A stretch of DNA of 59,038 nucleotides, from IMG/VR virus record IMGVR_UViG_3300025659_000001, positions 1-59,038 of that record. The stretch is one strand, 5' to 3'. The notes beneath the pieces are model-generated. The model was not told the origin of the DNA and searched no databases. It saw only the letters and a list, made by a program, of their open reading frames with translations. Source of the stretch: a virus (taxonomy: Duplodnaviria; Caudoviricetes). Positions 31,111-57,600 of the stretch are shown here, one piece after another. How positions within the stretch are numbered: the first letter of the stretch is position 1; each line of letters starts with the position of its first letter. Position numbers and translations under genes: made by a program.

Positions 31111-31320
31111 TTAAAATTCCTCTTCTATTCTGTATTTCTCTGAAGGTAGGTATATCTTCTTCAAGAGCTTTGGTTTGTATTCAGCGTCGTCCTTCTTTTC
31201 CTTTGGTATGGGCAGGAAAGACTCAATGATGTAACGTCGCTCAGTCGTAGTGAGAACAGCATTCTGGTATATCTCTGCTGCTTCATCGGTGTTGACTGGC
31301 ATTACTAGTATTTTATTCAT
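31111..31320 (-). CDS. Hypothetical protein
   Basis: Start likely MNKILV, overlapping the upstream stop (ATGA). Confidence 0.5.
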   Translation of the reverse strand: MNKILVMPVNTDEAAEIYQNAVLTTTERRYIIESFLPIPKEKKDDAEYKPKLLKKIYLPSEKYRIEEEF

Positions 31321-31541
31321 TCCATTGCTTCCTTTATTGCATCTACCCAATTAAGGTAGCTCGCATGGTTCCTACGAATGTGTTCGTTGGTATTCCAGCG
31401 TATGCTATTGGGTTTCCTGTTATTGTATGAGTAGTCTGATAAGACTGAGCCAAAGTTGATGTACTCCGAGTGTTGAAGAGCGTTTGTCTCATCTCTCCAC
31501 TCCAAACATGCATCGAAATCTATTCCACCATCGTTATTCAT
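31317..31541 (-). CDS. Hypothetical protein (first gene of the leftward arm)
   Basis: 74-aa ORF with AAAGG RBS. Confidence 0.55.
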   Translation of the reverse strand: MNNDGGIDFDACLEWRDETNALQHSEYINFGSVLSDYSYNNRKPNSIRWNTNEHIRRNHASYLNWVDAIKEAME

Positions 31542-31839
31542 TGGTTGCCTTTCTTACTTAGCCACCGACAAGGTGGCGTTTAATCATTTGGTTAGTGTTT
31601 AACCTCAAGGCATAGCTTCGCCCTGAGAGTCGTGAACTCCTTTGAGTTTTTGTTTCCCGCCTTCCTTTCCACAGTGCCAGTACGCTATGACCCATACACT
31701 TGCTTTATAGAAAGCCGTTTCGTTGATACCGGGGACAACACTGGTAACCTATGGCGGTTACTTTATAACCCGATGTCTAAGCCTCGCAGTAGAACCATCG
31801 CAGGGGAACAGAAAGGCTGAATCTAATTGTCAACGCTCT

Positions 31840-31868
31840 AATATAACCTTTGCTACCCCCTATGTCAA
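31840..31868 (-). promoter_or_regulatory. Consensus sigma70 promoter driving the leftward arm
   Basis: TTGACA-17 nt-TATATT on the minus strand. Confidence 0.75.
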
Positions 31869-32039
31869 GGGTGTAAGTGGAACAACATCTCATTTTTTAT
31901 AGAATTTCTATATACGGTCTTATATATAAAGATACCCCCTTTATATTGGGGGTTTGCTATTGCTTTTTGGTTAATTGATTATTGATTACTTTTTGATAGT
32001 TTATTGTTTATTTAATTACTTATTGTACTAGGAGGTACT

Positions 32040-32300
32040 ATGGGTGGATTTAGTAGTCGTGACAACCGTTATGCTGCTAGCAATGCATCAAGAGGTGCTC
32101 GTCGATTTCAGGGTGAGCCAGTTGAGATGCCACCGGAAGAGCGTGAAAGACTATGGAAGTTGCATACTGCCATGATCGCTGCTGGTGAAGTTGCTGTTGC
32201 AGAGTATATCTGGGCAAAGCTTCAGAGCTCAATTAATGATGATACCGAGATACGTCTTGCACGTGTTGAGACATTATTAGCACAAAATAGCCCCTCTTAA
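32040..32300 (+). CDS. Hypothetical protein (first rightward gene)
   Basis: AGGAGG RBS; 86 aa. Confidence 0.65.
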   Translation: MGGFSSRDNRYAASNASRGARRFQGEPVEMPPEERERLWKLHTAMIAAGEVAVAEYIWAKLQSSINDDTEIRLARVETLLAQNSPS

Positions 32301-32319
32301 TTGAGGGGTTAAACCATTA

Positions 32320-32397
32320 AGTCATGATGTTACTCATTTGTTGGGTATCATCTCTTTCAATGGGATGACCTAACAAGTGGGTAGTAGTATCTGGACT
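32320..32397 (+). other. Long G-U-rich RNA hairpin (possible RNase III site)
   Basis: TACTCATTTGTTGGGT pairs with ACCTAACAAGTGGGTA, plus an inner stem. Confidence 0.55.
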
Positions 32398-32491
32398 CAT
32401 TCAATCTTATCCTTATGTATATGTACACGTGGGGGAATAATATAGTACAGTAACTTCTACCACACAGGTATCACTGAGAATCGAGGTAACC

Positions 32492-32698
32492 ATGACCATT
32501 AAAGTTAATTCACTGGTACGAAAAGCTCATGTTATGGATGGTAGTCATAGAGCTGGTCAACCTACTGGTGATATCCTTAGAGTTATAAAGATTAAAGACC
32601 ACAAGCCTATTGATGGTAGTGTTCAAACTAAGTGTATTGCTATCTTGGCTGATGATAGCTGGTCATTCACTTGGAACCTAATATTGATACAAGAATAA
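32492..32698 (+). CDS. Hypothetical protein
   Basis: GAGG RBS; 68 aa. Confidence 0.6.
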   Translation: MTIKVNSLVRKAHVMDGSHRAGQPTGDILRVIKIKDHKPIDGSVQTKCIAILADDSWSFTWNLILIQE

Positions 32699-32873
32699 AG
32701 ATACGATAACCTATCTTACCAATCTAGGGGTATTATAGGTGTAACATGGACTAGATGTAGACAACGCTCAAAGAGTGAAATTGGGGCTCGTTGAAACATG
32801 GAACTCTTCAAGGGATGATACAGAACAGTAGTCATCCCACAAATTTTAACTCATAAGTCTAGAAGGAGACATT

Positions 32874-33185
32874 ATGAACAAAAGAACAACAGCTGGTCAA
32901 ATTGTTAAATGTATCAAACCTATCATCTTTGAACGTGGAGAACTATTAGTCCACAGCATCACTGGAGCCATTATTATGGTTTGCACTGAAAACCAAAGTG
33001 GTGATACACATGTAAGAGCTGTCTGTCTCAAGAAAGGGATTGGAACTTACACTCAAGGTATGATATCAAAATACCCAATCAGGCCCTTTGCATCATTTGA
33101 GGGTCTGTTAGTGATAGAACAAAACATCACTGATTCTGAGTCTACTGAGCTACTTATCGGTATGACAATGAAAGGTATTGAATAA
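32874..33185 (+). CDS. Hypothetical protein
   Basis: AAGGAG RBS; 103 aa. Confidence 0.65.
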   Translation: MNKRTTAGQIVKCIKPIIFERGELLVHSITGAIIMVCTENQSGDTHVRAVCLKKGIGTYTQGMISKYPIRPFASFEGLLVIEQNITDSESTELLIGMTMKGIE

Positions 33186-33235
33186 GATTACTTAACAAGG
33201 AGGGTTGATTATGGGTTGAATCAATCATATACATT

Positions 33236-33267
33236 GGGGGTGAGAAACCAAATCTCACTCCCTTTTT
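33236..33267 (+). terminator. Rho-independent terminator
   Basis: GGGGGTGAGA-AACCAAA-TCTCACTCCC-TTTTT. Confidence 0.65.
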
Positions 33268-33302
33268 GCCTTAATAACCCAGAAACGTGGAAGGAACACA
33301 TT

Positions 33303-33953
33303 ATGCTTTGGAAACAACATTTCAAAGACGCTTGGCTTGGATTATGGGTCGGTACATTAGGCCTACTGCTTGGTTATATATTTATTAGTCATCTTCACTT
33401 CTTATCGGGGTTACCAATTGACTATGAATACACTTGGGTAGACCAATTTACTCAGTTTGGTATTATTCTTATACTCTTTGTGGCATCTATCATTAGTGGT
33501 GCTGTTGGTGTCTTTGGGACACTTACATTCTTAGGAGTATGGTTTTGGGATATACCATCAAGGCTTTGGCATGAATATAAGCAACGTAAAGAAGTGATGA
33601 ACTTTTGGGCTGATTGGCTTGAAGTTCGTTATGCTTGCCCTAAAGCTATTAAATGGATTAAGACACAACGTACCCCACAAGAAGCGTGGGACAACTGTAC
33701 TGACCCTACTTGGTTGTATTGGTTGTTACAGATTCAATCTATCCAAAACCCTACAAGGTATCGTGTTGATAGAGATACATTAGCAAGACAGCTTGCAGTG
33801 TGGAGTGATAGTTGTGGTTATTTGAATTTACGTGGAGACATGGTTCCGGAGATGAATTTCTGGTCTAGAGATTTTCGTAATGTTGCAAAGGAAGAGACTG
33901 TTCGCGCAATACGTAAACAGTATCCTAAAGTACCATATCGTTCAATTATTTAA
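33303..33953 (+). CDS. Membrane protein (2 N-terminal TMs plus soluble domain)
   Basis: Two hydrophobic helices. Start reassigned to the ATG at 33303, downstream of the terminator. Confidence 0.65.
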   Translation: MLWKQHFKDAWLGLWVGTLGLLLGYIFISHLHFLSGLPIDYEYTWVDQFTQFGIILILFVASIISGAVGVFGTLTFLGVWFWDIPSRLWHEYKQRKEVMNFWADWLEVRYACPKAIKWIKTQRTPQEAWDNCTDPTWLYWLLQIQSIQNPTRYRVDRDTLARQLAVWSDSCGYLNLRGDMVPEMNFWSRDFRNVAKEETVRAIRKQYPKVPYRSII

Positions 33954-33978
33954 TTCCCTGAAAACGTGGAGGTAACAC

Positions 33979-34347
33979 ATGGGACTAAGACAGCGTATAT
34001 CTAATACGTTTACAAATTTGTTTGGCAGGACTCAATATCCTGCAAAGGACGCTGATTCAGTGCCAGCCAAGCAGGTAACAAAGAAACCCGCCAAGAAGCG
34101 TGGCTACAAAGGCCGTATTCAACCGAATATTCCTTTTGACAACCATACTCAAGGCCCACCATTAACACCTAACAAGCGGAAACGCAAAGATGGTAAGGCT
34201 AACTGCCAAGTGTGTAAGAATAATAGATTCGCAACCGTGAAGAAATCATTCAAACATGACCATTGGAACGATGCCAAGCTTGTTAAGTGCAGGTTTTGTA
34301 ATACCCTTTACATTACTGTTGATGGTAAAATTGTGGGTATGCCCTAG
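33979..34347 (+). CDS. Basic zinc-ribbon protein
   Basis: CQVC...CRFC; Lys-rich. Confidence 0.65.
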   Translation: MGLRQRISNTFTNLFGRTQYPAKDADSVPAKQVTKKPAKKRGYKGRIQPNIPFDNHTQGPPLTPNKRKRKDGKANCQVCKNNRFATVKKSFKHDHWNDAKLVKCRFCNTLYITVDGKIVGMP

Positions 34348-34351
34348 GTAT

Positions 34352-34386
34352 TGGGGGAGCAATTGATAACCGTTCCCCTATTCTTT
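34352..34386 (+). terminator. Probable terminator hairpin
   Basis: TGGGGGAGC...GTTCCCCTA-TTCTTT. Confidence 0.5.
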
Positions 34387-34406
34387 AACATATCAATGGA
34401 AGGAAG

Positions 34407-34655
34407 GTGTTCATGACTGTTATGAAGCCTGAAGCTTTTCATGCTTTACCTATTACTGCTAAATTGAGTATATTACCCTCTGGTGTAGCTATTCAAAAGC
34501 AGGATACGGTTTGGGAGGTAGCTCACCCAAGATTTCGTGCAATATCAGCTACTGCCAAGACTCTAAACCAATGCTTAACGATATGGTGGTCTATCTATCA
34601 TAATCGTCAAGATAAGTTCAAGGGTTGTAAGCAGAGTAAGGCAAGGTTATCATGA
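34407..34655 (+). CDS. Hypothetical protein
   Basis: GGAAGG RBS; ATGA-coupled to the next gene. Confidence 0.55.
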   Translation: MFMTVMKPEAFHALPITAKLSILPSGVAIQKQDTVWEVAHPRFRAISATAKTLNQCLTIWWSIYHNRQDKFKGCKQSKARLS

Positions 34656-34918
34656 CAGAACCTAGCCTGTTCTTTAAAGATATTAATGATATTAAAGCCT
34701 TGAAGAATACAGCAAGACAGCTTATTGAGTCTAGCAATCTGTTAGAGAGTGCAATCAAGAATAATTTTGAGACTCTTGAGCAAGATTGGGGAGACTTCTT
34801 AGCTGATGCAACACAAATTCATGCAATGATAACACCTACTGCCATTATGGTGAAACATAAGGTGTTCTTATCACCACCTACTAAGGATGAACTTGTTCCT
34901 TTGGGGAGGCAGACATGA
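34652..34918 (+). CDS. Hypothetical protein
   Basis: ATGA-coupled ORF. Confidence 0.55.
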   Translation: MTEPSLFFKDINDIKALKNTARQLIESSNLLESAIKNNFETLEQDWGDFLADATQIHAMITPTAIMVKHKVFLSPPTKDELVPLGRQT

Positions 34919-35514
34919 GTACGCCCATGACACAGCGTAAGGCTGTGCTTGTAGACCATGTTCCTTTAGCTGGTGCTCTTGTGATTTATGCAATGATGAA
35001 AAGCTGGATGCAAACTGGTCTAGGCAGTAAACAGCAATTCTTATATCGTGCTCTTGGTGCGAATAATAATGACCAATTTCGTAGTATCTTTCACGATGAT
35101 GTGCTCAAGACCTTGATTGGTACTGATGCTGTCATTGGTGAGATAGCTACTGAGTTCTTTGATAGTATATATAAGAACTATAATGTTGGTAAAGCTGAAA
35201 AAGACATAGTTGAAGACCCATTTCAACTCATGTTAGGGATTCTTTCAGAGTTCTTCCCTGCTTCTGCTAAGAAATTAGCTAGTAAGACACAAGACCCTGC
35301 TGTCCCCGTATCATACAATTTGGATTTATATACTGATAATCCAGCGAGTAATGAGGAAAGAAAGAAATTTCAAGAGCTTGTATCAGAATTATTTAAAGAG
35401 CATATACTTGGTGATGAATTACCTAGTAATGCTTTCTTGAATTGTTCAGTACACCAGATACAAAAGCCTTTGAATCCTTTTGAACTCACTGTACCTGTTG
35501 AAGATTTATCATAA
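34915..35514 (+). CDS. Hypothetical protein
   Basis: GGAGG RBS; 199 aa. Confidence 0.65.
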   Translation: MSTPMTQRKAVLVDHVPLAGALVIYAMMKSWMQTGLGSKQQFLYRALGANNNDQFRSIFHDDVLKTLIGTDAVIGEIATEFFDSIYKNYNVGKAEKDIVEDPFQLMLGILSEFFPASAKKLASKTQDPAVPVSYNLDLYTDNPASNEERKKFQELVSELFKEHILGDELPSNAFLNCSVHQIQKPLNPFELTVPVEDLS

Positions 35515-35615
35515 TAGTCGGGTGATTATTGTGTCAATGTGCCAGTGTATCTGTGGTTAGGTACGCCACATATCCACAAACGAGGAATTATCCTCAAACT
35601 ACAAGGAGGGCTAAT

Positions 35616-35846
35616 ATGCCTGCCAAGAAACCTGCTGCTGAGATTACTATCTATCTCATGAACCTCAAACCTACGTTTTCCGAAACGACTGTTACCTCTG
35701 GTACAGTAGCTGAACTTCGCAAGGAGCTCGATTTAGGTTCTGACCAGTCTGTTAGCGTCAACTCAATCGTTGCTGCTGACGATGCATGTATCCGTGAAGG
35801 TGATCGTGTATCGGTGGTTAAGAAAAACAAGACTGGTGGTCAGTAG
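35616..35846 (+). CDS. Ubiquitin-like (beta-grasp) protein ending in GG-Q
   Basis: 76 aa from ATG 35616 (AAGGAGG RBS); TVAEL...VSVN...IREGDRVSVV beta-grasp signature; C-terminus KTGGQ. Confidence 0.88.
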   Translation: MPAKKPAAEITIYLMNLKPTFSETTVTSGTVAELRKELDLGSDQSVSVNSIVAADDACIREGDRVSVVKKNKTGGQ

Positions 35847-35866
35847 ACCTTGACTTGTTGAACATT

Positions 35867-35898
35867 ATAAGGGAGCCTTCGGGTTCCCTTATTTTTTT
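35867..35898 (+). terminator. Strong rho-independent terminator after the Ubl gene
   Basis: ATAAGGGAGCC-TTCG-GGTTCCCTTAT followed by a T-run. Confidence 0.85.
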
Positions 35899-35975
35899 GG
35901 CGTGTTCCTCTAGCATTCTCTAAGACCTAGCTGATATTGAGCTGGAAACGTGGGTACGAAATCCCACACACGCCA
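35899..35975 (+). ncRNA. Non-canonical tRNA-like RNA
   Basis: Acceptor GGCGTGT/ACACGCC+A; D-arm TCT/AGA; anticodon arm TAGCT-GATATTG-AGCTG; T-arm GTGGG-TACGAAAT-CCCAC. Lacks G18G19, U33 and TTC. Confidence 0.6.
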
Positions 35976-36018
35976 TTTTTTTGAATGATAATATTAACTA
36001 TCTTGGAAGGGAGGTCAG

Positions 36019-38484
36019 ATGCTTAACAAATCTGATTTTAAAGGAGCAATTACTTCATATATGAATGGAGGAACGCTCAACAAGGTACGTAAGTACTTTT
36101 ATGATATCACACACTATTTGAATTACTTTACAAATTGGTTGTATGATACCAATGTGCTGTATGAGGATGAATACGGTGATGCACAAGATAAACCACACCC
36201 TAATCCTCATATTGAATGGTTTCGTATAAGGGCAGAAGAATTGAATAGGATTCCACAAAAGGAATTTCCTGTCTTTAATTACCTAACACCTAAGTTCCGA
36301 TTCAATGCAAAATTTAAAGAGCTAAGTAATCATTTGATGGGTGCATTTATGTATCTAACGCATGATGGCTTGTCAAGGTTCAAACCCGGCATTAAGGCCA
36401 GAAGAATCAGTATTAGCACTCATAACCATGATGCTAGAGAGGCTATCGCAAGCTTCTATTCACTTAGCTTTAATATAGCGAGGGAATTACAAGGTGCTAT
36501 GTCGCGTGGAGAGATATTAGCAGAGCCTAGTGTCAAAGAATTTAAACAACGCACTGGTATGGCTGCCAAGGTGTTTAATAGCTATATTGGCTATCAAGCA
36601 TCTATACTCAACAAGAAGGTAAAAGTTATTCGTTCTAGTCAGATTATTAAGACTCATGGAATGCAATTCTTTAATCAACTGGTTAGACCTTCTGCTTTAA
36701 GACCCATTGATTACGTACTGTCTGTTGAAGGCAGTGTAAATGTCATTGCAAGTCAAAAGTATGAACGGTTTAGTGATGTTGAGGCTATTCTAGACTTTGA
36801 TGCTAATCTCTATGTTTTGATTGTTGAACAGCAAGATTTAGGGGGATTTGCTAATCAAAACCCTGAACATCAAGCAACTATGATACCTACTATTCAAATC
36901 ATAGCTAAGATAAGTGACCCTGAGTTATTTGAGGTTACTATGTCTGGTAATGGCCCCGGTAGACATGGTGGTGCTCATGGTGAGCATGGAACTGGAGAAC
37001 ATTTACTCCAGAATATGCCATTAGATGCGTCAATGACATTGTGGTACTATAACCTCACAGATATTTACAGGCTCTCTGAACATTATATTCCGTATCGTAA
37101 GATTATTGCTGCTAAAGGTAAGTCAATAGATAAATTTAATAAGTTGACAGACCTTTTGTACAAATCTGACACATATATACAGGGATACATGAAAGCATAC
37201 TATTACGGTGAGGAAATAGGAAGAGTACATCCTTATATCTCACCTAATACATCAGGTAGATGTACTGGTGGCTTTAATGAGATTGATGCTGCTAGTGGTA
37301 AGCTGAACCTAGTATCAGGTTTGGTATTTGTGAAACAATGGTTGTCCAAGTATATTCAAGGACATACTAACCCTCAAAACAATATTGACCACTTCATTGT
37401 TGGTATACCACCTTGGTTAACCGACAGATATACTGAAGTCAATGGTCGTATTGGGGATTGGGAAAAGTGTAAACAACGTTTCTTTGGTGATAGAGTCCAG
37501 AATTTGAATTATTCTTGGAATACACTACCATATCCAGCGTTAAGCACCCTTGAGACTTCACGGATTGACCAATACAACAAACGTCAAGTTGTAGGTTGTG
37601 ATGTAGAAGAAACTTACAAGAATCTGGACAATACGTTTTATAAATCTAGCATAGATTATACTGCTCGATTAGAAGCGTACCATTGTACTGATTGTGCGCT
37701 TGCAGAGAGTTGTCCTAAGTTTAGTCAGTTTAGACTTTCAGACAGCAATCCAGCATGGAGAAGGATGCAAGCCAGAAGAGCAGTACGTAATAAGACAGCT
37801 CTTGAGCATTTCTTAGATGATGCATTGATTGAAACAATACGTACTTATATTAATGAGTATGTATTGCCACAAAGAACTATCACTGACAATGATTTTAGAA
37901 TGCAATTAGAGCGTTTTAGAATATTACTTGATAATAGTTGGCCTCATTTGTCATTGAACGGTGCACATACACCTCATATCACTACTGTTCAGTTTCTTAC
38001 AATCTTGTATGATGCTGTGCTACCTGAAGAACATAAGCATTTTGCTAAGACTTTTGCAAGTGTTACTGAGACATTTAGACATGAATATCGTCTTTCAGGA
38101 CTCAGGCAACGTATGGGTGAGCGTATAACGTATTACAATGAGAAAAGTGATGATGGTAAAAAAGAATACCGAGAGAAAGCAGCAAAACGCCTTGCTAGAT
38201 TTTCTCAATCATTTGAACAAGCTAATAAAATACACTGGAAATTTGGTGTAGGTTATTGGTTGGGTACTATTCCACCTTTAGTTACAAATGAAGCACTATG
38301 GGAAGACCAGCAACAAGCAATGAAAGAGTTGAATGTTGTATCAATAGAAGAACCAGTTGATACTTTTCAATCTGCTTCTGAACGCATGATTGATGCTGTT
38401 CTGAATAACCCGCCTGTATTTAATGTGCAGGCCACAGATACAACATCTGTGCGTGGAGCAATTTCATTTGATAATGAATTTTAA
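36019..38484 (+). CDS. Large protein with central E2 (UBC)-like domain and Cys cluster
   Basis: HPYISPNTSGRC(415)TGG...WLSKY...NP resembles the prokaryotic E2 active-site region; HCTDC...C cluster; sits between Ubl and JAB. Confidence 0.65.
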   Translation: MLNKSDFKGAITSYMNGGTLNKVRKYFYDITHYLNYFTNWLYDTNVLYEDEYGDAQDKPHPNPHIEWFRIRAEELNRIPQKEFPVFNYLTPKFRFNAKFKELSNHLMGAFMYLTHDGLSRFKPGIKARRISISTHNHDAREAIASFYSLSFNIARELQGAMSRGEILAEPSVKEFKQRTGMAAKVFNSYIGYQASILNKKVKVIRSSQIIKTHGMQFFNQLVRPSALRPIDYVLSVEGSVNVIASQKYERFSDVEAILDFDANLYVLIVEQQDLGGFANQNPEHQATMIPTIQIIAKISDPELFEVTMSGNGPGRHGGAHGEHGTGEHLLQNMPLDASMTLWYYNLTDIYRLSEHYIPYRKIIAAKGKSIDKFNKLTDLLYKSDTYIQGYMKAYYYGEEIGRVHPYISPNTSGRCTGGFNEIDAASGKLNLVSGLVFVKQWLSKYIQGHTNPQNNIDHFIVGIPPWLTDRYTEVNGRIGDWEKCKQRFFGDRVQNLNYSWNTLPYPALSTLETSRIDQYNKRQVVGCDVEETYKNLDNTFYKSSIDYTARLEAYHCTDCALAESCPKFSQFRLSDSNPAWRRMQARRAVRNKTALEHFLDDALIETIRTYINEYVLPQRTITDNDFRMQLERFRILLDNSWPHLSLNGAHTPHITTVQFLTILYDAVLPEEHKHFAKTFASVTETFRHEYRLSGLRQRMGERITYYNEKSDDGKKEYREKAAKRLARFSQSFEQANKIHWKFGVGYWLGTIPPLVTNEALWEDQQQAMKELNVVSIEEPVDTFQSASERMIDAVLNNPPVFNVQATDTTSVRGAISFDNEF

Positions 38485-38507: not shown

Positions 38508-39443
38508 TTGTTTTTCATCGAGCGTAAAGATATGCGTCGTGTATTTGATTATGCACAAGAGACGTATAAGAAGTTCAAAACTGAAGTAGGCGGTATGATG
38601 GTCATCATGGAAGATAAGGATGGTGACTGGGTAGCTAGTGACCCTGTGATACTGAAACAGGAAGTAACTGGCGGTACTACTACTTTAGATGCTGATGCAC
38701 TTGCTGTGTATTATGGCAAGATGGCTGAGAAATATGGCAATAATGTCAGGTTTCTTTGGTGGCATTCGCATGGTGGTGGTAGTGTATTTTGGTCTAGTAC
38801 AGACGAGATAGCCATTAAAGAGTTCTCTGGTGGTGATTGGTCAGCTAGTTTAGTGGTCAACATTAAAGAAGAGTTCATCTTTAGGGTAGATTATTGGAGT
38901 CCATTCTATAAACGTATGGATAAGATGAAGTTATCCTATTTTGAACATGACGTTCCAAAGAAAGTCTTAACTGACATTGATAAGTTGGTGGCAGTAAAAA
39001 AGTACGAACAGAGCAATATAGCAGACAACCGCAACACGAATACTCGGAATACGGCTTCCACTCCAACGGTGAGCGAAGCGGACTTGGGGAATCGTGGCAA
39101 CGAGAGTTTGGGCCTTCTGCCCAACGAAATCTCTTCTGAGTCTGACCATACATTAGACCAAGATGCTGTTTGGCAATGGATGGATGAATTCATTGACCTG
39201 TATATTGCTGATGAGATGAGCTACAACAACTTGGAAGAGTGTGTGGGTCATATCAATACAATGTGTGATTCTCATGATACCATTCATCAGATTACACTTC
39301 CATCGAAAGACCGTATGAAGATTTACGTAGAGAAATCTGAAGTACCAAGTCGATGGGATTTCTTCACTTATCGTAAAGGTAAGGGAACAGAGGAGCAGAT
39401 GCAACTTGATGCTGATGCTGCTCAAAAGGAACTGACTACCTAG
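38508..39443 (+). CDS. JAB/MPN+ (JAMM) metalloprotease
   Basis: TEVGG glutamate and WWHSHGGGSVFWSSTD (HxH-x7-S-x2-D); TTG start with GGAGG RBS. Confidence 0.9.
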   Translation: MFFIERKDMRRVFDYAQETYKKFKTEVGGMMVIMEDKDGDWVASDPVILKQEVTGGTTTLDADALAVYYGKMAEKYGNNVRFLWWHSHGGGSVFWSSTDEIAIKEFSGGDWSASLVVNIKEEFIFRVDYWSPFYKRMDKMKLSYFEHDVPKKVLTDIDKLVAVKKYEQSNIADNRNTNTRNTASTPTVSEADLGNRGNESLGLLPNEISSESDHTLDQDAVWQWMDEFIDLYIADEMSYNNLEECVGHINTMCDSHDTIHQITLPSKDRMKIYVEKSEVPSRWDFFTYRKGKGTEEQMQLDADAAQKELTT

Positions 39444-48322: not shown

Positions 48323-48444
48323 TGGTAGAGGGTGAGAGTCGTTACAGATAAGACTTTCGATGGGAGCGAGGGGTGTAGTGTGCGTTTCGTGTTTCGTAGT
48401 CTGTACTATGAGCATGAAGTTCGATACATCGTTTATGCCACTAA
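48319..48444 (+). ncRNA. Candidate structured ncRNA
   Basis: TTAGTGGTA/TGCCACTAA closing stem, GAGTC/GACTT hairpin and a long G-U-rich hairpin at 48386-48418. Confidence 0.45.
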
Positions 48445-48449
48445 TTAAA

Positions 48450-48580
48450 TTGGAGCAAAAAAGAACACCTGCCAGATAAACGGGAAGTCACTGGTTCAAC
48501 TCCAGTTACCGCATTATAGCGATGATACCCCTAGGGGAGTAAGTTAGAAGCGGTATAGTTCAGTCAAGAGGCTGCTCCAA
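48450..48580 (+). ncRNA. Circularly permuted tRNA-like gene (GAT/Ile-like anticodon)
   Basis: The 3' part (GAAC, anticodon arm, T-arm ACTGG-TTCAACT-CCAGT, TACCGC) precedes the 5' part (GCGGTA-TA-GTTC-AGT). Enclosed by TTGGAGCA/TGCTCCAA. Confidence 0.7.
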
Positions 48581-48585
48581 AAACT

Positions 48586-48650: not shown

Positions 48651-51600
48651 TTATAAGTTTTTAAGTGATTTTAATGCTGCTTCTCTCCGCTTTACTGACA
48701 ACGAAGTACCACCTCTAGGTTTAATTTCCGGTAATCCTTTCACCTTATTATAACCCTTTTGAATACCACCCATCAATTTCTCATGTAAGTCATTGATATA
48801 CTTTGGTGGTTTGTACATTCCTGTTTCTATTCTGAAGGCTTTTTCCCATTGACCATTAGTAAGAGCTGGTATAGTATGCCATGCTGACCTAGCTGCTTGG
48901 ATATTAAATATTCTTGCAACTCGATACCACCAGTCAGGGTCATTTGTATCTTTCTCAAGACCCATTCTACTTTCAATAGACTCTGGGGTAAGATTAATAA
49001 AATCAAATAGTTCACCCGCAGTTAATACATCACTTACGAAAGGCCCTAAGTTAGCTAAAGCAGGATGTTTACCATAGTAGGTATTCCATTTCTTCTCTAG
49101 TCCTTCTTTAGTACTTTCATCTGCTGTTATCCATTCATATAGCTTACTTGCTTCAGATGCTATTGGGTTCTCCACTAGTCCGTCTGACTTTTTATCATCT
49201 CCAAACATCTCCGCTAAACCACCTACACTAAAGCCTGAAATCATTGCAAATAGTCCTGTTCCAATGGTTTGTATAGCTACACTACGCATCATTCTTGCGA
49301 TAGATGGTGATACAATAGTCTTAGAAGCGTCTAGAGGGTCTATTGCTGTCCAGTTACCGCCCTTGATATCACCTAGTCCATCTTTCATTAGATTGAACAT
49401 TAGGTCGAAGTATGCAAATTTAAAATGCTGGAACTGTGTAACTATCTTGGAAGCACCTGCCATTTTGCCCATATATCTCTGGTCGCCCCGGTTGATTCTA
49501 GATTTAGCCCAGTTATCATAATCAAAATGAAGTGTTTTCACCATTTCAATAGCGTAGTTACCAGATATATCTTCAATGTGGTCAAATAATTGTTTACGGG
49601 TAGGGACTTTACCATACCTTTTCATAAGAACTTTTTCATAATGAGCTTGTCTACCTGACTCTATATCCCATTGTGAAGCAAAGGCTATTTCAAATGTATT
49701 CTGCCTATTCTTATTCTCAGCCCATCTCATTGTAATAGCAGAAGCGTTAGCAGCCTCTCCCATCTTCCTTGAAACTTCACGTAGAGCATTGCTAGAACGG
49801 TCAATTATTAGCTCTCCTCTTTCGTTAATAGCGAATCCTTTTGGAACCATATAATAGTCAATGGAACCAGCAGTAGCAGCAGATTGTCCAGCCTCTACTG
49901 TTCGTGATGCCTTTTCAATATCTCCTGTAAGAGCATATCTTTTTAGTTGTCTATCTAACATTTCTTTATTATTACGATAAGCATCTCTGTTCTCAGTAGC
50001 GGTTGTTTCACGACTGTTATGACCTGCAAGGAAATTGTCTCTGTTCTTATACCCTTTCCCACCAAACCATACCCAGTTAAATAACCCTTGACCCCTATTT
50101 TTTAATCCACCCTTGACACTTAATCCAAGTTTAGATATATATTCAAAACCATTGATGATTTGAACCATGTAATCCATGCTGTTCATTTCACCTCTAGTCT
50201 GATTGAGTGTACTGCCACGTATTTCATTTAATACATCTAGAGTATACTCAGAGAAATTGGCTAAATCACCATTATCTTTTGCTCCTTGTGATGTATTTAC
50301 CTTACGAATATGTTTGAGAGCATCGTGGGTAGCATCCATAAAAGCATAATTTACTCTTGACTTAAAGTTATAGTTTGCAACGTCTTGAACATACTTATTG
50401 AGATAATATACTGGGTCTAGTGCTATGTACTTATCAGTATTACCTCTTGGCTTTGCAAATCCGGGTAGTATCTGGTCGGTAATCATAGACTGGATTCTCT
50501 CAGCAATCTCACTAGGCTTTTGCCCTTCAAACTTTGCTCCATGTTTCTTCATAGCTGATTGGGGGTTCTGAGCATAATCTGATAACTGCCTAACAGCATT
50601 AGTCAACTCAATAACATAGTGTGGCGAATACTTTTTAATGCCAACTGCTATTTCCTCAGTAACTACCTCCCTACCATCTACCATTCTACGCTTTGTAACC
50701 ATGATAGGTTTGGTAGTACGAGATTCGGGGTCATATATTCTCATGTCTTTAACCATGTGAGTACCAGTACCCATGTCAGGTATACGTTGGTTAGCATCTA
50801 CACTTGTTTGAAATAGCATTGAGGACATAGCTTCATCTAGCATCTTCATAGAACTCTCGATACCAGCCCTATCACTTGAATCAAATCTCATACGCTGTAA
50901 TGTTCTACGTGTGGTAAACAAGGCATTATGTAGATTACGAGCCATGTCAGTACGAAGTGTATTCCAATGCCCTACAATCTTTTCTTCCCAAGGCTTATTA
51001 GGGTCAGGTTGTTTCGTAAACTCCAATAGGTCACGAAACCTAGTAAGCATTTCAGCCCCATTTTTCTTGCCACCCTCTAGTGATGGGTCACCTATTAACT
51101 TAGTAATATCTCTCAAGACCTTACCTGCATCTTCACCGGGCTTTGCATCTAATAAGGCACGTTCAAGTTCTTGGAAGTTCTTGTATTGAGATTTATCGAA
51201 GTTCATATCTGACATCATTTTTTGCATACCCTCTAGCATACCGTTGATATGTCCAGTAGCATCTCTCAAGGTACGTTGGTTATAACTATTTGATTTCTCA
51301 AATTCACTTATCATTCTAGCACCACCGGGGAACTTAGAAGCAATAGCCTTCGGCAATTTAAACCAATGCCCAAACCAACTCTCTTTCTTCCCTAGATTAT
51401 TAACAAACTCATTGACACCACGAATGTACCTATCTGCATCCCTCTTATCTATTGGGATATTATCAGGGTCAAAAGGATTACCGGTATACTTCTTCCAGAG
51501 CCATTTGTGTGTCTCTAAGTCCTTGTCATAACCATATAGCTTAGATGCTGCATGGTTGGATAGTACTGATGCACCTTCTTCAACAACTCGTTTTAGCTGT

Positions 51601-51665
51601 CTTGCGGTTTCGTCTGAGGGAACCCTAGAATTACCTGCTGCTCCTCTACATCCTGCTACTGGCAT
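48651..51665 (-). CDS. Large internal virion/ejection protein
   Basis: 1004 aa, helical; coupled (TAATG) to the virion RNAP gene; last gene of the late arm. Confidence 0.65.
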   Translation of the reverse strand: MPVAGCRGAAGNSRVPSDETARQLKRVVEEGASVLSNHAASKLYGYDKDLETHKWLWKKYTGNPFDPDNIPIDKRDADRYIRGVNEFVNNLGKKESWFGHWFKLPKAIASKFPGGARMISEFEKSNSYNQRTLRDATGHINGMLEGMQKMMSDMNFDKSQYKNFQELERALLDAKPGEDAGKVLRDITKLIGDPSLEGGKKNGAEMLTRFRDLLEFTKQPDPNKPWEEKIVGHWNTLRTDMARNLHNALFTTRRTLQRMRFDSSDRAGIESSMKMLDEAMSSMLFQTSVDANQRIPDMGTGTHMVKDMRIYDPESRTTKPIMVTKRRMVDGREVVTEEIAVGIKKYSPHYVIELTNAVRQLSDYAQNPQSAMKKHGAKFEGQKPSEIAERIQSMITDQILPGFAKPRGNTDKYIALDPVYYLNKYVQDVANYNFKSRVNYAFMDATHDALKHIRKVNTSQGAKDNGDLANFSEYTLDVLNEIRGSTLNQTRGEMNSMDYMVQIINGFEYISKLGLSVKGGLKNRGQGLFNWVWFGGKGYKNRDNFLAGHNSRETTATENRDAYRNNKEMLDRQLKRYALTGDIEKASRTVEAGQSAATAGSIDYYMVPKGFAINERGELIIDRSSNALREVSRKMGEAANASAITMRWAENKNRQNTFEIAFASQWDIESGRQAHYEKVLMKRYGKVPTRKQLFDHIEDISGNYAIEMVKTLHFDYDNWAKSRINRGDQRYMGKMAGASKIVTQFQHFKFAYFDLMFNLMKDGLGDIKGGNWTAIDPLDASKTIVSPSIARMMRSVAIQTIGTGLFAMISGFSVGGLAEMFGDDKKSDGLVENPIASEASKLYEWITADESTKEGLEKKWNTYYGKHPALANLGPFVSDVLTAGELFDFINLTPESIESRMGLEKDTNDPDWWYRVARIFNIQAARSAWHTIPALTNGQWEKAFRIETGMYKPPKYINDLHEKLMGGIQKGYNKVKGLPEIKPRGGTSLSVKRREAALKSLKNL

Positions 51666-54600
51666 TATTCACATCCTTTTTCATATAAGTGACTATACTC
51701 TTTGGTTAGTTTGTCTTTCAGTGATACCTCTGTACCCTCACCGTATCCACCAGCATGTTTACCAGCATCTCTTACTGCTGGAGTATCTTCATGTATGGCT
51801 CTAGCAGCACTAATAGTTCTCTGCTCTTTTGAACCCCATATGGATGCTACTGATTCGGCTATCTGAGAATCACTTGGTCTTAGGTTTCTACCTCCGACAA
51901 CGTTTTCAGTCAGATGATACAGCTCTATTGGGTCGAGATGGTAAGTCCCGTTCATATAGGCTGCCATTAAGTCTGCTGCCAACTCATCTTTGATATTTTC
52001 ATGAGTCATCCAAATAGGTATTTCTTCTTTTGTTAGCTGGAATATCTTTAATGGTCTCCTCACATCCTCTAGCCTGCGTTGTGCCATTACATCACCCATT
52101 ATAGTAGGGTTATTCTGCCTTAATAACTCAACAGTCATTCTCTGTATAATATCGGAATGTAAATCACGGGCTAGGTCTGGGTGTATTAAATCAGAACCCT
52201 TGCCTGCCATCATCTTATCAAGAGTAGCAAGTACAAGTTTCTCATTATGTCTATTACTTCTATATGCTTCATGAGTAATATACTGTCCATTAGCGGGGTC
52301 ATAACCAGTAACTGCCATTTTCTTATTGTCAATCACTGGTGTTAAGAGCCTAAATAACAACTGTTTAACTCCATCTGCTCCTGCTATTTCATGTGCTCTA
52401 CCCATATGGCGAGCAAGTACATGTTGCTGTAATTCACTTACAGTTCCCCATTTATCAGAACTCATTGGAGCAAACCTATCATTAAGTAGGCTAACCTCAA
52501 ACAGTTCCTCTGGCATACGTTCTGCAATATCATTAATCCTGTCACGAGTTCCACTATATTCTAGGGATGGTAAATCACGAGCAAAGGCTTTAGCAAATGC
52601 TCTTCTTGATTTCAGTACTACATCATGTTCAACTTGTAGCTCCCTTGGGTTATAGATGACAACATCGCCCTTGTTTAACCATTCTCTTTTACCCTTGCTT
52701 ACACGCCTAAAGTTGACAACTTCATTATTCTTGATAGTGTAAATATGAGCAACCTTGTGGAATAAACGATTTTCTGACTCTGGGTTAGTAATCATAGTCC
52801 CTCTAGCCTCAACACGACCATTCAACTTTTCATTGATAATGCCAATAGCCTCTGTATGAGCTTTCATGACCTTCAGTAACCTATCATATTTAGAGGTGTT
52901 AGTCTGCTTGAAGTGACGCATCTCTTCTAATCTGTCATTGATTCTCTGTGCTTCATAGCTTATCCAGCCCATTTGAGCCCAATCTGATTCAGTACGAATG
53001 TATGTGTTCAATGCTGATGTCATTGTCTGCCTGTCATAATTGAACTCACCACTAAGCATGTTCGTAATAGTAGCATCAGTAGCAGGTTTTTTTCCATTAA
53101 TCTCTCTATTGAAATATCCAGCCAGCTCTTTCATTCCTTGAGCTAGTGGGTGATTACTGGTAGACTGTTTACCTGTTGATGTAGCTCCTAGCCACTCCAG
53201 TAGATTCTCAGCTATTCCTGCTGTGTGATTAAGCTTGGCTCCAGTATTCCTATCTGTGAAGTTAGCATGGTTCTGAACCTTACGTATCACATCATTATAA
53301 GATGATACTAGTTCTGTAACGCCCATCTTGCGTTGAGTACCATTTGCCATAGTCTCTGTCATGTTCTGAAGGTTGAAGAACTGACCTAATGGTATCATTA
53401 GCTCTGTCATTTCCTTCTGTAAAGTACGTCCAGTAGATTCTTCCCTTGCATCAATCCAACCGAGTTCTTGGTCACGCCTTTCAATCTTTAGGAAGCCATT
53501 ATCTCCAAACCATATAGCCTTACTTGCGCTAAATTCACTTGGAACTTCTGGTGTAGCCTTGTAAACATCAATAGTCGTTTTAATCAAGTTCTTCAAGTAG
53601 GCTAGTGAATTGATATACTCACCACCATCTTTAAAGGTGACCCTAAACCTATCTTTAGACCTGTTCACATGGTCATTAAACATTTCTATGCCGTCATTGA
53701 CAACAGCATGGCTTACTCCACCTTTTTCATTGACTTCATAGCTACGTGCTAGGCCGGGCTCAATACCATCTAAGCCAGCTCTAGATACTAACATATTGTA
53801 TATCATGGTAGCTGCTGAGTGTTGTCTCACAATTCCACCACGCATACCTTCAAGGTGAGCTATGTAGGCATTTTTGGTAGTCATATCACTAGAGTTGTCA
53901 GCTAAGACAGACTTCATAGCAGTATCAAATAACTTACCTGTGGCAACATCTTGATACCCAGATAGATTGTAGATGTCCCTTACAACCGCACCCGGTAAAG
54001 CGAAGAAACTCGCACTCTTATCAAGGTCAAAGTCAGCATCCTGTGGGTCTACAACGTCTAGGTAGTTCATTTCACTAACTGGGCCTCGTTTAGCACTTAA
54101 TAGTTTCTCTACCTTAGTGATAACGCGGTCTGACATTCCAGCCATAGGTGTACGCAGGTCAACATTAGCAACGTGGATTGCTTTGAATCCAGTCTTTTTA
54201 GCTGCCATTCGACCGCCGTTAGATTTATAGTCTTGTCCTTGTAGTTCTGTACCTTCCCAATATTCACCATCTAAGTGAGCTACTAGGTCAGCTATATTCA
54301 TACCTTCAAACCCCTCTAGGGCATCAGCATAAGCCTTCTTAAAAGCACCATTAATGCGAGCATCTAGCTCTCTGCCAACTGCCTGACGTTTTGCACTACC
54401 AAAGATTTTATCTCCAGCCTTTTGTCTCATAGCAGTCAAGTGAGGCCCCATTACAAAGCCATCATGAGTTACTACAATGTCGTCACCAGATTTTAATGGT
54501 TCAAAGCTCATATCTTTCTTGCTTCCGTATTCACCAAGTATAGCATTCATCTCGGCAGCCTTCTCTGGTGTAAGCGTCAGGATGAGCGATACACCCTGTT

Positions 54601-57600
54601 TGTCACCCATACCCTTGATACCACCTACAAAAGTCTCTTGATGCTCTCTGTATGCCTTTCCGGAGCCTCCAAACATGCGTTGGTATCCTTGACCTGAACC
54701 ACCTTCGATAATTCTTAGGGGCATTGACAGGTCTGTTGCTGCTGTCATGACATTGTAGCCACCATAAGGCGTTCTACTGGTCGTGAAGTTTCTATTGCCT
54801 AGATACTCAGATACAAGCATTTTATCAGCTTGAGGAATCATATATTCAAATACTGGAACACCACCAGCCTCTAGTACGCCTTCAATACCCATAGACCTAG
54901 CGAATAAATCACCTCTATTGAGTGCTGAGTTGCGTAAGGTAGCCATTGATGACCTAAAGCTCAACGGATTAGAGTGCATGTCCTTATAAGACCTTAGTAA
55001 ATCAGATACAGCTCCCAAGCTACCCGTCATATCATTCAAGGCTTTCTGCCCTTCATTAGATAAGTGATTACCGAACGCTGCTGTGAGTGTTCCATCATGG
55101 TCTGTTGAGATACTCTTGAGAAGAATAGCCTCATTAGGAATCATGGTGATTAAATCTTTACCTGCACGTGCCATAGGGTCAACCAAGTCCATCAAACCCT
55201 CTCCGGGGTTCTTAAAACTGTTGTCTGTCTCTGCTGGTGTAATCCTCAGTCTCTTGTCTAAGAACTGTTGGCCTTTTCCTGCCTTAGTTTTGTTGATCTT
55301 CATAGCAGAGCTAAACGTAATAGAATCAGTCTTATAGGTCTTTCCATCAGGATTCTTCATCATGGCATCCATCATTGGATTAAACTTAAAGGCTGTCTTA
55401 CCAACCTGTACTGATACCGAACCATCTTCTCCAAACTCAGAGTTCATCACTGTTGGTTTAATAACAGCTTGAAAGCCTGTAACCTCACCCTTTTCATTAA
55501 AGGTAAACCAATCCTTACTGCCACCTCTGGTCAACAAGAGTGCTGCCATGTGGGGTAGTGAAAGATACCATTCACCATTAACTACTGAAGCATCTGCTGT
55601 TTGGTAGTTCTGCATTTGTATTTCAAGCATAGCATCTGCATTTTCAATAGAATACCCATTGTCAATAAGCTGTTGCTTGAGCTGTGCTTTACCACGTTGA
55701 TATATGCTAAAGAACTTTTCACCTTGACCATCTTCATCTTCGATTTCAATAGTACGCATATGTTTATTCTTCACCATCTGTGACTTGAAGTGCTTTAAAA
55801 TATTCAGCATTTCCTTATCTTCACCAGCATACTTGTCCCAATATCTCTCAGTGACCTCGACTGTTGTTTTATCAAGAGCAAGACCATTACGAGCATTATC
55901 TAACTTAGCGTATTTCAATAGCTTAGCTATCTTCTCTGGTGTCGCAGTTCTCTCTATAAACATTGCCTGTACTTCATGTGGTACAGCATCAATAGCTCTA
56001 GTTAGGTACACTAGCTTTTCCAGTACCTCTAGACCATTCTTGCCATTCTTATCAAAGCCAATATTCTCAAAATATCTGTCAACTAATTCTGGACTATCTA
56101 CTAGCGCAGAAAGCTGTTTCCGTATACGTGATTCTGGGTTCTTCCAGACCTCACCAGCAGTACGTAGGCCACGAGCCGACATCACAATAGTCGTTCTGTC
56201 ATCGAGTTCTAATACTCTAAACTGTGGTTTATTGCCTTTACCATCCCCAACTAAGGTACTTTGGAGTCTCTCAAGTATTTGGGAACTCTCCACATCCATA
56301 AATTGATCTAATGGAATGTCAATACCCATACCCTTCGCGGCATTGATAGCAATCGCATCTCGTAGCCCTTTGTCTAATCCTCTTAGCTGTCTCTCACCAA
56401 TAACAGCCTGTTGTCCTAGCATCATGATAGACCCATCAAAGTCAGTTAGACCTAATTGATGTTGAAGTCTATTGATACCCCTATGCCAACGTGATGTGAC
56501 TGTCATCCCAGCATTAAAAGTACCGTTTTGACCAGTCCTATCGGGAGCGTTATAGCTCAAAGTAAGCATTTGTTTTCTATTGATTTGGTTCATAATAATC
56601 TGCATAACATCTGAATGAAAGTCAGGTCTACTATTTCCACCCATACGCCCAGCCATATCCTCAACAAATGGGAAAATAATAGATTCAACAATATCAGCAG
56701 CTTCGACATATTCTTTAGTCTTTTCGTTAAAGAACAACTGATTAGCAGCATTATCTCTATCATAAGCTACCCTGCCTTTACCGATTGCATACTGAACCTT
56801 TTCAGTTAATGATGCAAACCCTTCTGGAGTCACACCGTAATCAGAATACTTTGCTATAAAAGCACTCTCGCTGATGGTACTAGAATGTGATGACCAAGGA
56901 CGCGTGTGTATTGGTCGCCCATTAGCTCCGTAGTGGTCATCTATCCACTCAGGAACTTCATAATATTCATCTAGCCTTGTCTCTTCCATGTATTTCTCAA
57001 GTGACCCATTCATTATGAGTTCAGCTTCCATCAAAGCTTCCTTCAAAGGCTCTGCTTTTATACCTTCATAGCGACTCAATTTAGACTTTAATGCCTCTAA
57101 CTGTCCAAGCCTTGTCTCAAGGGTACGCAAACCAATAGCATCACCAGTCGCAACCATCCACTCAATAGTGTGTTGGATACGTCCAGTAACCTCTGCTAAC
57201 TCTACTAAATGATTACGCATAGTTGAAGTCGAGGCATCTTCTTTCCATTGCTTTGAAGATAGTGTAATTCTTTCAACTTCAGTACCCAAGCCACTAATGG
57301 CTTCAGCTACCTGCCCAATTCTCCGGAGCCTATTAGCATCAGTTGATTGGTTCAAACCTATAATAGTATTCATTAATTCCATTGGTTCAAGGAAGTTTGG
57401 TATCTCTCCACGAAACTCAATCATTTGAGCTCCATTACGTTGACCTTCTCTCAATGGTATTTCAATGTTGTCTCTATAAGAGTCTATTTCTTTTCTTGTC
57501 TTAGCATCAAGTGGGCCATCACGACTCACTAACTGCTCTATGGCACTAGAATCTAACATTAAGATTTTGCCATTAGAGTGAGTGACTAAGCCTCGCATCT

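Follow-up and report, generated by a model that had tools for sequence, protein, structure and literature searches.

The plus-strand early region of the tailed-phage record IMGVR_UViG_3300025659_000001 (Duplodnaviria; Caudoviricetes), analysed here over its whole length of 59,038 nt (the window), carries a 77 nt sequence at nt 35899–35975 that folds like a transfer RNA (tRNA) and sits inside an operon, between the gene for a ubiquitin-like protein (Ubl) and the genes for a possibly E2-like protein, a JAB-like protein and an E1-like enzyme. What is a cloverleaf doing at this position: is it a tRNA gene or the remains of one, a chance fold, a free small RNA, or a signal within the message? The element is tRNA-shaped yet is no tRNA gene, and the reading we favour, with a probability of about 0.4, is that of a cis-acting module for intercistronic punctuation and attenuation, whose acceptor/T-arm helix possibly draws RNase P or RNase Z. 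The original prediction had offered three roles, namely a processing signal separating the Ubl message from that of the downstream genes, a nuclease decoy, and an RNA on which the Ubl/E1 system acts. The processing signal is the most plausible of these, and nothing was found in support of the other two.

The gap between the Ubl stop codon (nt 35846) and the next start codon (nt 36019) covers nt 35847–36018; both genes are on the same strand as the element, and no open reading frame (ORF) of at least 50 aa overlaps the gap. Its first feature is a plus-strand hairpin with 11 pairs and a loop of 4 (stem nt 35867–35892) running into a T7 tract (nt 35892–35898). The whole structure (nt 35867–35898) has the form of an intrinsic terminator, a G+C-rich hairpin running straight into a U tract, and a terminator scan also scores the 35867–35892 hairpin with its TTTTTTT as terminator-like. 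The cloverleaf starts at the next base, nt 35899, as had been predicted, and was delimited by its minimum-free-energy fold, pair probabilities and a structure descriptor. All of its parts are on the plus strand. The acceptor stem (nt 35899–35905 with 35968–35974) consists of seven Watson-Crick pairs, five of them G-C. It is followed by a D region (nt 35909–35925) whose loop lacks GG, and by an anticodon arm (nt 35927–35945; stem 35927–35932 with 35940–35945) that contains one U·G pair and closes a 7 nt loop, GATATTG (nt 35933–35939), with TAT at nt 35935–35937, an A at the position of U33 and a T at position 37. The T arm (nt 35950–35967) has a stem of five pairs (35950–35954 with 35963–35967) and an 8 nt loop, TACGAAAT. 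The sequence places a discriminator A at nt 35975, directly 3′ of which is a second T7 run (nt 35976–35982). The leader of the next gene (nt 35983–36018) then carries a purine-rich ribosome-binding site, GGAAGGGAGG, 5′ of the ATG at nt 36019; a hairpin in this leader in which the second U run would mask the Shine-Dalgarno sequence is not significant (fold z +0.37). The near-canonical arm lengths first read from this DNA hold for the 7 bp acceptor, the 7 nt loop with TAT and the 5 bp T stem, while the anticodon stem is 5 bp, as then given, or 6 bp if the flanking C-G pair is counted. The altered invariant bases (no GG in the D loop, A33, the 8 nt T loop) and the T7 run after the element can likewise all be read in the sequence.

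The cloverleaf is the minimum-free-energy fold of these 77 nt, at -27.3 kcal/mol (z -4.13), and none of 200 dinucleotide shuffles folds as well. Pair probabilities are 0.87–1.0 in the acceptor stem, 0.88–0.93 in the anticodon stem and 1.0 in the T stem. The sense strand is also the more stable one (-27.3 against -24.8 kcal/mol for the minus strand), which counts for a role in the transcript. All 18 of 18 pairs are intact in the three main stems and most of the tRNA-invariant loop bases are altered, a combination that would suggest that the shape has been selected rather than left to decay neutrally.

A loose descriptor (7 bp acceptor, 5 bp anticodon stem with 7 nt loop, and 5 bp T stem with a 7 or 8 nt loop abutting the acceptor; G·U pairs permitted, D arm unconstrained) matches the window once, at nt 35899–35975. 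In 400 block-shuffled windows it found 123 matches, or 0.31 per genome, so the bare cloverleaf shape is not rare. This frequency would suit a chance fold of an intergenic spacer, as would the roughly 1% of genomic windows that are equally stable after adjustment for G+C, and the fact that the element is a single sequence without conservation. However, only one of the 123 shuffle matches is as free of G·U pairs as the real element (at most one), which corresponds to about 0.0025 per shuffled genome, and the real match lies on the sense strand within a non-coding gap, of which there are few, and starts exactly where the terminator ends. We consider a chance origin very improbable and take the cloverleaf to be a genuine structural element.

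It is not recognised as a tRNA gene. ARAGORN at default settings finds no tRNA genes in the window and Rfam at gathering thresholds gives no matches there. The Rfam tRNA model found nothing at E ≤ 10 in a 401 nt search of nt 35700–36100, and over the whole record at the same level RF00005 has no match at the cloverleaf, its sole match being at nt 48485–48506. A search of nt 31300–36100 against Rfam at E ≤ 1 returned no sub-threshold match. Relaxing ARAGORN, as the original prediction had proposed, yields the name tRNA-Ile(TAT) for the element, first at -ps85, where there are 5 calls in the window and 95 in 25 shuffled windows (3.8 per genome); at -ps80 the window gives 34 calls and the shuffles 503. 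Since shuffled genomes produce about 3.8 calls each at -ps85, the relaxed call is at noise level. tRNAs carry U8, G18 G19, U33, a purine at 37, T54-Psi55-C56 and a 7 nt T loop as invariant or semi-invariant features. The geometry of the element is that of a tRNA (7 bp acceptor with stacked 5 bp T stem, 5 bp anticodon stem, 7 nt loop) and T8 is present, but G18 G19 are missing, position 33 is A, position 37 is T, position 55 is A and the T loop reads TACGAAAT.

These dimensions, together with T8, A73 and a T arm near the common GTGGGTTCGA type, could also be those of a functionless relic of a former phage tRNA gene; some relatives carry a tRNA(CAT) 1.5–3 kb upstream of the Ubl gene, the window has no tRNA at all, and the relaxed ARAGORN label would name the lost gene. 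That label appears only at -ps85, at about 3.8 calls per shuffled genome, and the Rfam tRNA model is silent. Decay would also be expected to cost stem pairs as fast as loop bases, yet the 18 pairs are complete. We regard a relic as quite improbable.

With a profile built from 12 E1 sequences, viral contigs yielded 426 relatives and metagenome contigs 395, of which 80 from each were kept, and the comparison set comprised the window and 177 related loci (178 sequences, 1.49 Mb). A first E1 search had given 19 viral loci. Many of the relatives have contig names that indicate ocean surveys. The highest E1 identity to the window was 56%, so this phage is without a close relative in the collections searched. 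The order Ubl, variable middle protein, JAB, E1 is syntenic among relatives. Among 185,579 species genomes a single-protein query found no relative and the profile found one contig of 3.9 kb from a metagenome-assembled genome (MAG). The operon family is carried by phages. More distant E1s (29–34% identity among the 15 matches listed) occur in crAss-like phage records, and the tally of distant E1s also includes 29 Flavobacterium phage records. The operon DNA has no blastn match among 50,697 phage records.

The cloverleaf is carried by 0 of the 177 related loci, and with no homologue among them there is no covariation for the element. The exact T-arm pattern has no matches in viral contigs. A blastn search with nt 35850–36020 against phages gave only partial matches, all short and none reaching beyond 27% of the query; those listed lie in the terminator part or in the 3′ part formed by the T arm and acceptor, and none of the 30 matches listed lies under a tRNA feature. 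The descriptor matches no relative's junction between Ubl and the next gene. Eight of its 19 matches in relatives have at most two G·U pairs, and these are three real tRNAs, three antisense in E1 and two inside middle ORFs. The three antisense cases (L084, L126 and L132) are clean matches (1–2 G·U pairs, 8 nt T loop) at the same place in E1, and this recurrent cloverleaf is probably a by-product of coding conservation.

What relatives do keep at the same position is a structured gap. A Ubl was detected in 77 of the 178 sequences, giving 48 unique resolved junctions between the Ubl and the next ORF (17 were unresolved and two had no next ORF). The gap was ≤5 nt, with the Ubl stop overlapping the next start, in three unique junctions, 6–59 nt in two, 60–220 nt in 34 and more than 220 nt in nine, several of which (e.g., L090, L091) contain a small Cys-rich ORF; gaps of at least 60 nt are therefore found in 43 of the 48. 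In 31 of the 34 gaps of 60–220 nt a single closed structure, with a span of 40 nt or more, dominates. Nineteen of these structures are rods and 12 are multibranch structures closed by at least 5 bp, the window supplying one of the 12. Mean z was -3.48 in the 34 junction gaps compared with -1.98 in 68 plus-strand gaps elsewhere in these loci (Mann-Whitney p 4.7e-5), and z was below -2 in 76% of the former and 47% of the latter. The plus strand was the more stable in 29 of the 34 junction gaps, indicating an RNA rather than a DNA-level element. Closed sense-strand structures are general in the intergenic parts of the early region in these phages, and the Ubl junction is where they are concentrated.

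The structures in this slot fall into several sequence classes without mutual similarity, and Rfam has no family for the junction elements in the loci searched (12 loci, 16 loci, and 8 loci at E ≤ 0.1). In 14 pairs of loci the Ubl scores were 91–97 and those of the middle protein 61–77 (identity x coverage), yet the junction RNAs had no detectable similarity; the reverse was seen in no pair. The junction structures turn over faster than the flanking genes. The original prediction held that absence of the cloverleaf from related operons, if it were also not expressed as a discrete RNA, would make it simply a tRNA pseudogene. The absence is real; the conclusion does not follow, because tRNA models are blind to the element, its stems are intact, and the same slot in relatives holds other structured RNAs. 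That the junction structures are dispensable and interchangeable fits a generic cis role better than one tied to Ubl chemistry, and such a role could be to give the Ubl message, which is short and probably highly expressed, a fate different from that of the enzyme genes.

Two further kinds of junction were observed. In L178, L172, L175, L147, L174, L171, L122 and L091 a coding-looking, Cys-rich sequence lies directly 5′ of the middle gene, which is suggestive of a small zinc-ribbon ORF, in the place that a folded RNA takes in other loci. In L024, L036, L026, L117 and L123, whose middle proteins are 717–835 aa long, a long junction hairpin stands upstream of the middle ORF; its stems differ between the five loci and covary, and a G-rich loop motif (AGGGGCAT-like) is kept.

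For the window we propose the following sequence of events. Transcription arriving from upstream of the Ubl gene would mostly halt at the hairpin and U7 of the first terminator. RNA that reads through would fold as a terminally closed four-way junction, with a G+C-rich closing stem again placed before a U7 run, so that the cloverleaf would add a second block and a structured barrier. A 12 bp acceptor/T-stem stack, a U at -1, the G1-C72 pair and A73 are the main features that bacterial RNase P needs, and their presence here would make nt 35898/35899 a plausible RNase P site; nt 35975/35976 would be a plausible site for RNase Z or 3′ trimming. Cleavage would leave a Ubl message ending in a protective hairpin and give the E2-like/JAB/E1 message a separate and presumably lower fate, the predicted outcome being much Ubl and little enzyme. 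The fold and its two flanking T runs are present in the DNA as described; passage of the polymerase through the element, the efficiencies of termination, cutting by nucleases and the effect on stoichiometry are each inferred from them.

Several observations weigh against a punctuation module. The D arm is weak (pair probabilities 0.26–0.64), and the element lacks the elbow contacts used by RNase P (G18 G19 and a canonical T loop). Judged on stability only, it is less exceptional, with a GC-adjusted residual of -2.55 standard deviations that puts it in the top 1.0% of 23,586 genomic 77 nt windows, outside the 25 most extreme. A covariance model of the cloverleaf found only itself in the window and the 177 loci. 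Other intergenic regions of the relatives are also fairly structured, 47% of them having z below -2, and the closed structures of relatives lack downstream T runs, so that a terminator-like role cannot be transferred from them. In L035, L041, L048, L089, L115, L141 and L145 the middle gene starts within an overlap with the Ubl stop, and its ribosome-binding site is formed in the GG codons; such gapless operons indicate that the slot is dispensable and a junction RNA optional. Finally, the window stretch is contained in 12 sequencing runs, two of which are RNA libraries, and each of these two gives one unbroken contig (14.8 and 21.7 kb) identical in sequence to the window, without ends, joints or variants. 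The RNA-library contigs may be DNA carry-over and hence uninformative about transcription.

The same two T runs could serve a simpler purpose, with the closing stem and its U7 acting as a branched second terminator in tandem with the first, the tRNA likeness being incidental and no nuclease involved. The 7 bp closing stem is G+C-rich, ends one base before T7 and comes directly after the first hairpin and its T7 run, and the closed stem after the E1 stop (nt 40130–40235) also has a U-rich tail. Transcription could restart from a weak extended -10-like sequence, TGnTAATAT, at nt 35986–35994, which was read by eye and is unlisted in a promoter scan. On the other side, the scanner scores simple hairpins only, which places the branched cloverleaf outside its reach, the closed elements of relatives lack T runs, and termination has no need of exact tRNA-like arm lengths. 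Termination as the sole function is in our estimate rather unlikely.

The closest documented analogue of a punctuation module is the t-elements of plant mitochondria, cloverleaves of non-canonical form at which RNase P and RNase Z cut to make mRNA ends (PMC1920247). As there, the phage element is a cloverleaf within a presumed transcript that adjoins a coding region. The ends of t-elements are described as coinciding with mRNA ends; cutting there by RNase P and RNase Z has been demonstrated or is presumed, and the element can persist after its excision (PMC1920247). They differ in being organellar, and the Arabidopsis examples were found through the T-arm motif GGTTCRANYCC, which is absent here, where the loop is TACGAAAT (PMC1920247). 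For the phage element, cleavage is a prediction. A second comparison is with intercistronic processing or stabilising hairpins, such as the RNase III sites of T7 and the hairpins of the puf and mal operons. These are likewise sense-strand folds between a small gene needed in quantity and the genes downstream, and can split the fates of the two; they are rods with internal loops, whereas the phage element forms a four-way junction, and its longest coaxial stack, at 12 bp, is short for RNase III. Punctuation of mRNAs by tRNA-shaped cis elements is known in organelles and in a few long RNAs of eukaryotes, and we know of no case within a phage operon or a ubiquitin-like conjugation operon. Were the proposed processing to take place, these phages would be reusing the tRNA-maturation enzymes of the host to set the ratio of Ubl to enzyme.

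Instead of acting within the message, the cloverleaf might be excised and act in trans as a stand-alone tRNA mimic, possibly as a decoy for host nucleases that target tRNAs or for tRNA-binding factors. Its paired 5′ and 3′ ends, G1-C72, A73 and 12 bp acceptor/T stack would suit tRNA end-processing enzymes, the relatives are rich in noncoding RNAs (tRNA(CAT), GOLLD, and closed-stem RNAs flanking tRNAs), and the replacement of junction RNAs in the 14 locus pairs with near-identical Ubl would fit an arms race or cassette exchange. The nucleotides of tRNA identity, which a decoy would have to imitate, are mostly absent, however, and genome-wide the RF00005 model finds nothing at the site up to E 10; the RNA-library contigs run unbroken through it and give no sign of a discrete RNA; and the element is in no other phage searched. 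A free mimic is unlikely. A bacterial Y RNA-like noncoding RNA with a tRNA-like module, YrlA, also occurs in phages (PMC4201824), and in both respects, module and phage occurrence, resembles the window element. In the window, the element has no Rfam Y RNA match and no Rsr gene was found among the ORFs scanned. In YrlA the D and T loops retain their canonical contacts, and the RNA is associated with Ro60/Rsr, unlike the phage element.

The noncoding RNAs of the relatives include one recurrent pattern, a 7 bp stem enclosing GAGG, 20–200 nt of variable hairpins, and GUGUA before the stem partner. This GAGG...GUGUA pattern has 34 matches on the plus strand, one on the minus strand and five in shuffles of both strands. 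The 30 unique elements have many different, mutually complementary stem sequences, and they form a clear strand-specific RNA family that goes unrecognised by Rfam 15. Ten of the 30 are at the Ubl junction and the rest in other early gaps, with at most three per locus, and some are directly beside tRNA(CAT) genes. Examples located by the pattern are nt 3439–3521 and 1869–1952 of L054, 987–1066 of L080, 3117–3215 of L063 and 1391–1479 of L041. Occurrence away from the Ubl and beside tRNAs fits general punctuation better than a Ubl-specific role. The pattern has no match in the window, where model R2 gave three weak matches (E 0.21–0.69), all in coding sequence and none at nt 35899–35975.

tRNA genes in this lineage amount to nine ARAGORN calls in the 178 sequences and nine RF00005 matches in the 16 loci searched. 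A tRNA(CAT) lies 1.5–3 kb upstream of the Ubl gene in L054, L066, L085, L108, L110, L121, L131, L148 and L165. Closed-stem elements stand beside the tRNA in, for example, L066, L085, L108 and L110, on both sides of it in L066 and L110, and the one downstream of the L066 tRNA shares conserved flanks with the junction elements of L003, L056, L087, L092 and L106. In L038 a GOLLD RNA (RF02032, 168.4 bits, E 3.8e-45) occupies nt 574–954, downstream of a tRNA at nt 154–226, and the Ubl operon follows about 2.3 kb beyond it. GOLLD is described as phage-encoded and often near tRNA islands, with the marine env-38 example downstream of a Met-tRNA (10.1101/2024.12.08.627333), and the L038 copy, 3′ of a tRNA, matches that description of env-38 (10.1101/2024.12.08.627333). 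The cloverleaf shares the phage lineage and early-region setting of these tRNA genes and of GOLLD; it differs from them in that it fails tRNA models and has no similarity to GOLLD or any other Rfam family.

A more far-reaching proposal would be that the Ubl/E2 junction of this large, phage-only family is reserved for small, terminally closed RNAs that evolve fast (the hitherto undescribed GAGG...GUGUA elements, conserved-loop hairpins and, here, a tRNA mimic), which would be released as stable molecules and act with the hypervariable E2-like protein in specificity or counter-defence rather than as plain punctuation. We think this improbable. The junction-slot pattern and the GAGG...GUGUA family are more interesting than the cloverleaf itself. 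The slot pattern may matter more than the cloverleaf; it concerns hundreds of marine phage operons in which a structured junction RNA is exchanged faster than the flanking genes, and the tRNAs, GOLLD and an Rfam-unrecognised multi-copy family in one lineage provide a candidate set for studying small RNAs in phage early regions.

The genes around the cloverleaf bear on whether the Ubl/E1 system could use it as a substrate or cofactor, for instance in Urm1/TtuB-like thiolation or in conjugation to RNA. The Ubl gene (nt 35616–35846, plus strand) was identified as an ORF and by its translation, a protein of 76 aa with the C-terminus ...KTGGQ before the stop codon; it has a weak ThiS-like Pfam match (E 0.007, under the cut-off), and tblastn finds relatives at 58 loci at E ≤ 1e-4. 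The gene following the junction (nt 36019–38484, plus strand) encodes the middle protein, possibly E2-like, of 821 aa, an orphan beyond a core of about 100 aa. A full HMMER search of 1.84 billion representatives returned the protein itself and two weak partial matches, a word-based search found only itself, there was nothing among viral contigs, and no Pfam, PHROG or PADLOC family matched. The middle proteins of the relatives have only this core in common, which bears the motif HP[YF][IV]S...C.GD, and the core motif of the window is also in seven other middle proteins. We take it to resemble the HPN...Cys core of E2 enzymes, and an E2 identity for the 821 aa protein is suggested by this motif. 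The core has no sequence match in the PDB, and its AlphaFold2 (AF2) model, with a predicted local distance difference test (pLDDT) score of 42.8, is not usable. The JAB-like protein (nt 38508–39443, plus strand; 311 aa) matches Prok-JAB at E 0.0034, under the Pfam cut-off, and a region of the PADLOC E1-E2 model at E 5.9e-5; its gene adjoins E1 in 153 loci, a conserved arrangement. The E1-like adenylating enzyme of the ThiF family (nt 39443–40129, plus strand; 228 aa) matches PF00899 at E 3.2e-16, and its profile matches UBA5, UBA6, MccB, ThiF and Cap2 chains and also, at E about 1e-9, chains of tRNA threonylcarbamoyladenosine dehydratase.

The ubiquitin-operon setting that had been assigned to the element stands as far as a Ubl ending in GG-Q and a clear ThiF/E1 domain are concerned, while the JAB assignment is weak, with a score below the cut-off, and the E2 label is suggested by the motif only. 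Similar operons are known from bacteria as the Bil system, an anti-phage defence comprising a ubiquitin-like protein, E1, E2 and a deubiquitinase (10.1101/2023.09.04.556158). The window shares with Bil operons the gene order, in which the Ubl is followed by a large middle protein (its core possibly E2), JAB and E1, and the C-terminal GG of the Ubl; Bil operons are bacterial, whereas the operon type of the window is phage-borne (426 viral and 395 metagenome relatives against one short MAG contig). We know of no mention of an intercistronic RNA in Bil systems.

For a function of the cloverleaf in Ubl/E1 chemistry, co-location is the sole argument, along with the existence of E1-superfamily enzymes that act on tRNA. 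Neither the 821 aa protein nor the 33 of 69 other middle proteins scanned against Pfam gave any match, and thus no PP-loop, TtuA, Ncs6-type or other Pfam family was found that might modify an RNA. In addition, the GAGG...GUGUA family also occurs away from the Ubl operon, some operons are gapless, and junction RNAs differ between near-identical operons. Such a substrate role is extremely improbable.

The window covers the whole of a virus record (59,038 bp, 41% G+C) that has direct terminal repeats. Its minus strand carries the structural genes, with portal and large terminase assigned through PHROGs, and its plus strand the early or replication block, which includes a Sak4-like protein, a primase-helicase, a Gam-like and a RusA-like protein. 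The cloverleaf and the ubiquitin-like operon are within this plus-strand block.

Other parts of the window are also structured. The three most stable 77 nt windows after GC adjustment, all on the plus strand, are nt 32321–32397, 41811–41887 and 39471–39547; two of them fall, entirely or for the most part, between genes of the early block, and the third is in the 5′ part of E1. Closed-stem elements were found in further plus-strand gaps at nt 40130–40235, 46236–46450 and 48450–48580. The first, a closed stem with a U-rich tail directly after the E1 stop, may mark the end of the operon. The last is a closed multibranch element in a 333 nt gap between the plus- and minus-strand blocks, where the fold of nt 48323–48585 is not significant (z -1.57). 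Within this element is the only RF00005 match of the genome, at nt 48485–48506, a lone canonical-looking T arm (11.5 bits, E 0.86). Further on, nt 48651–59032 of the minus strand hold two giant ORFs of 1004 and 2455 aa without a PHROG family, which we assume may be large virion-associated proteins such as those of N4-like or crAss-like phages.

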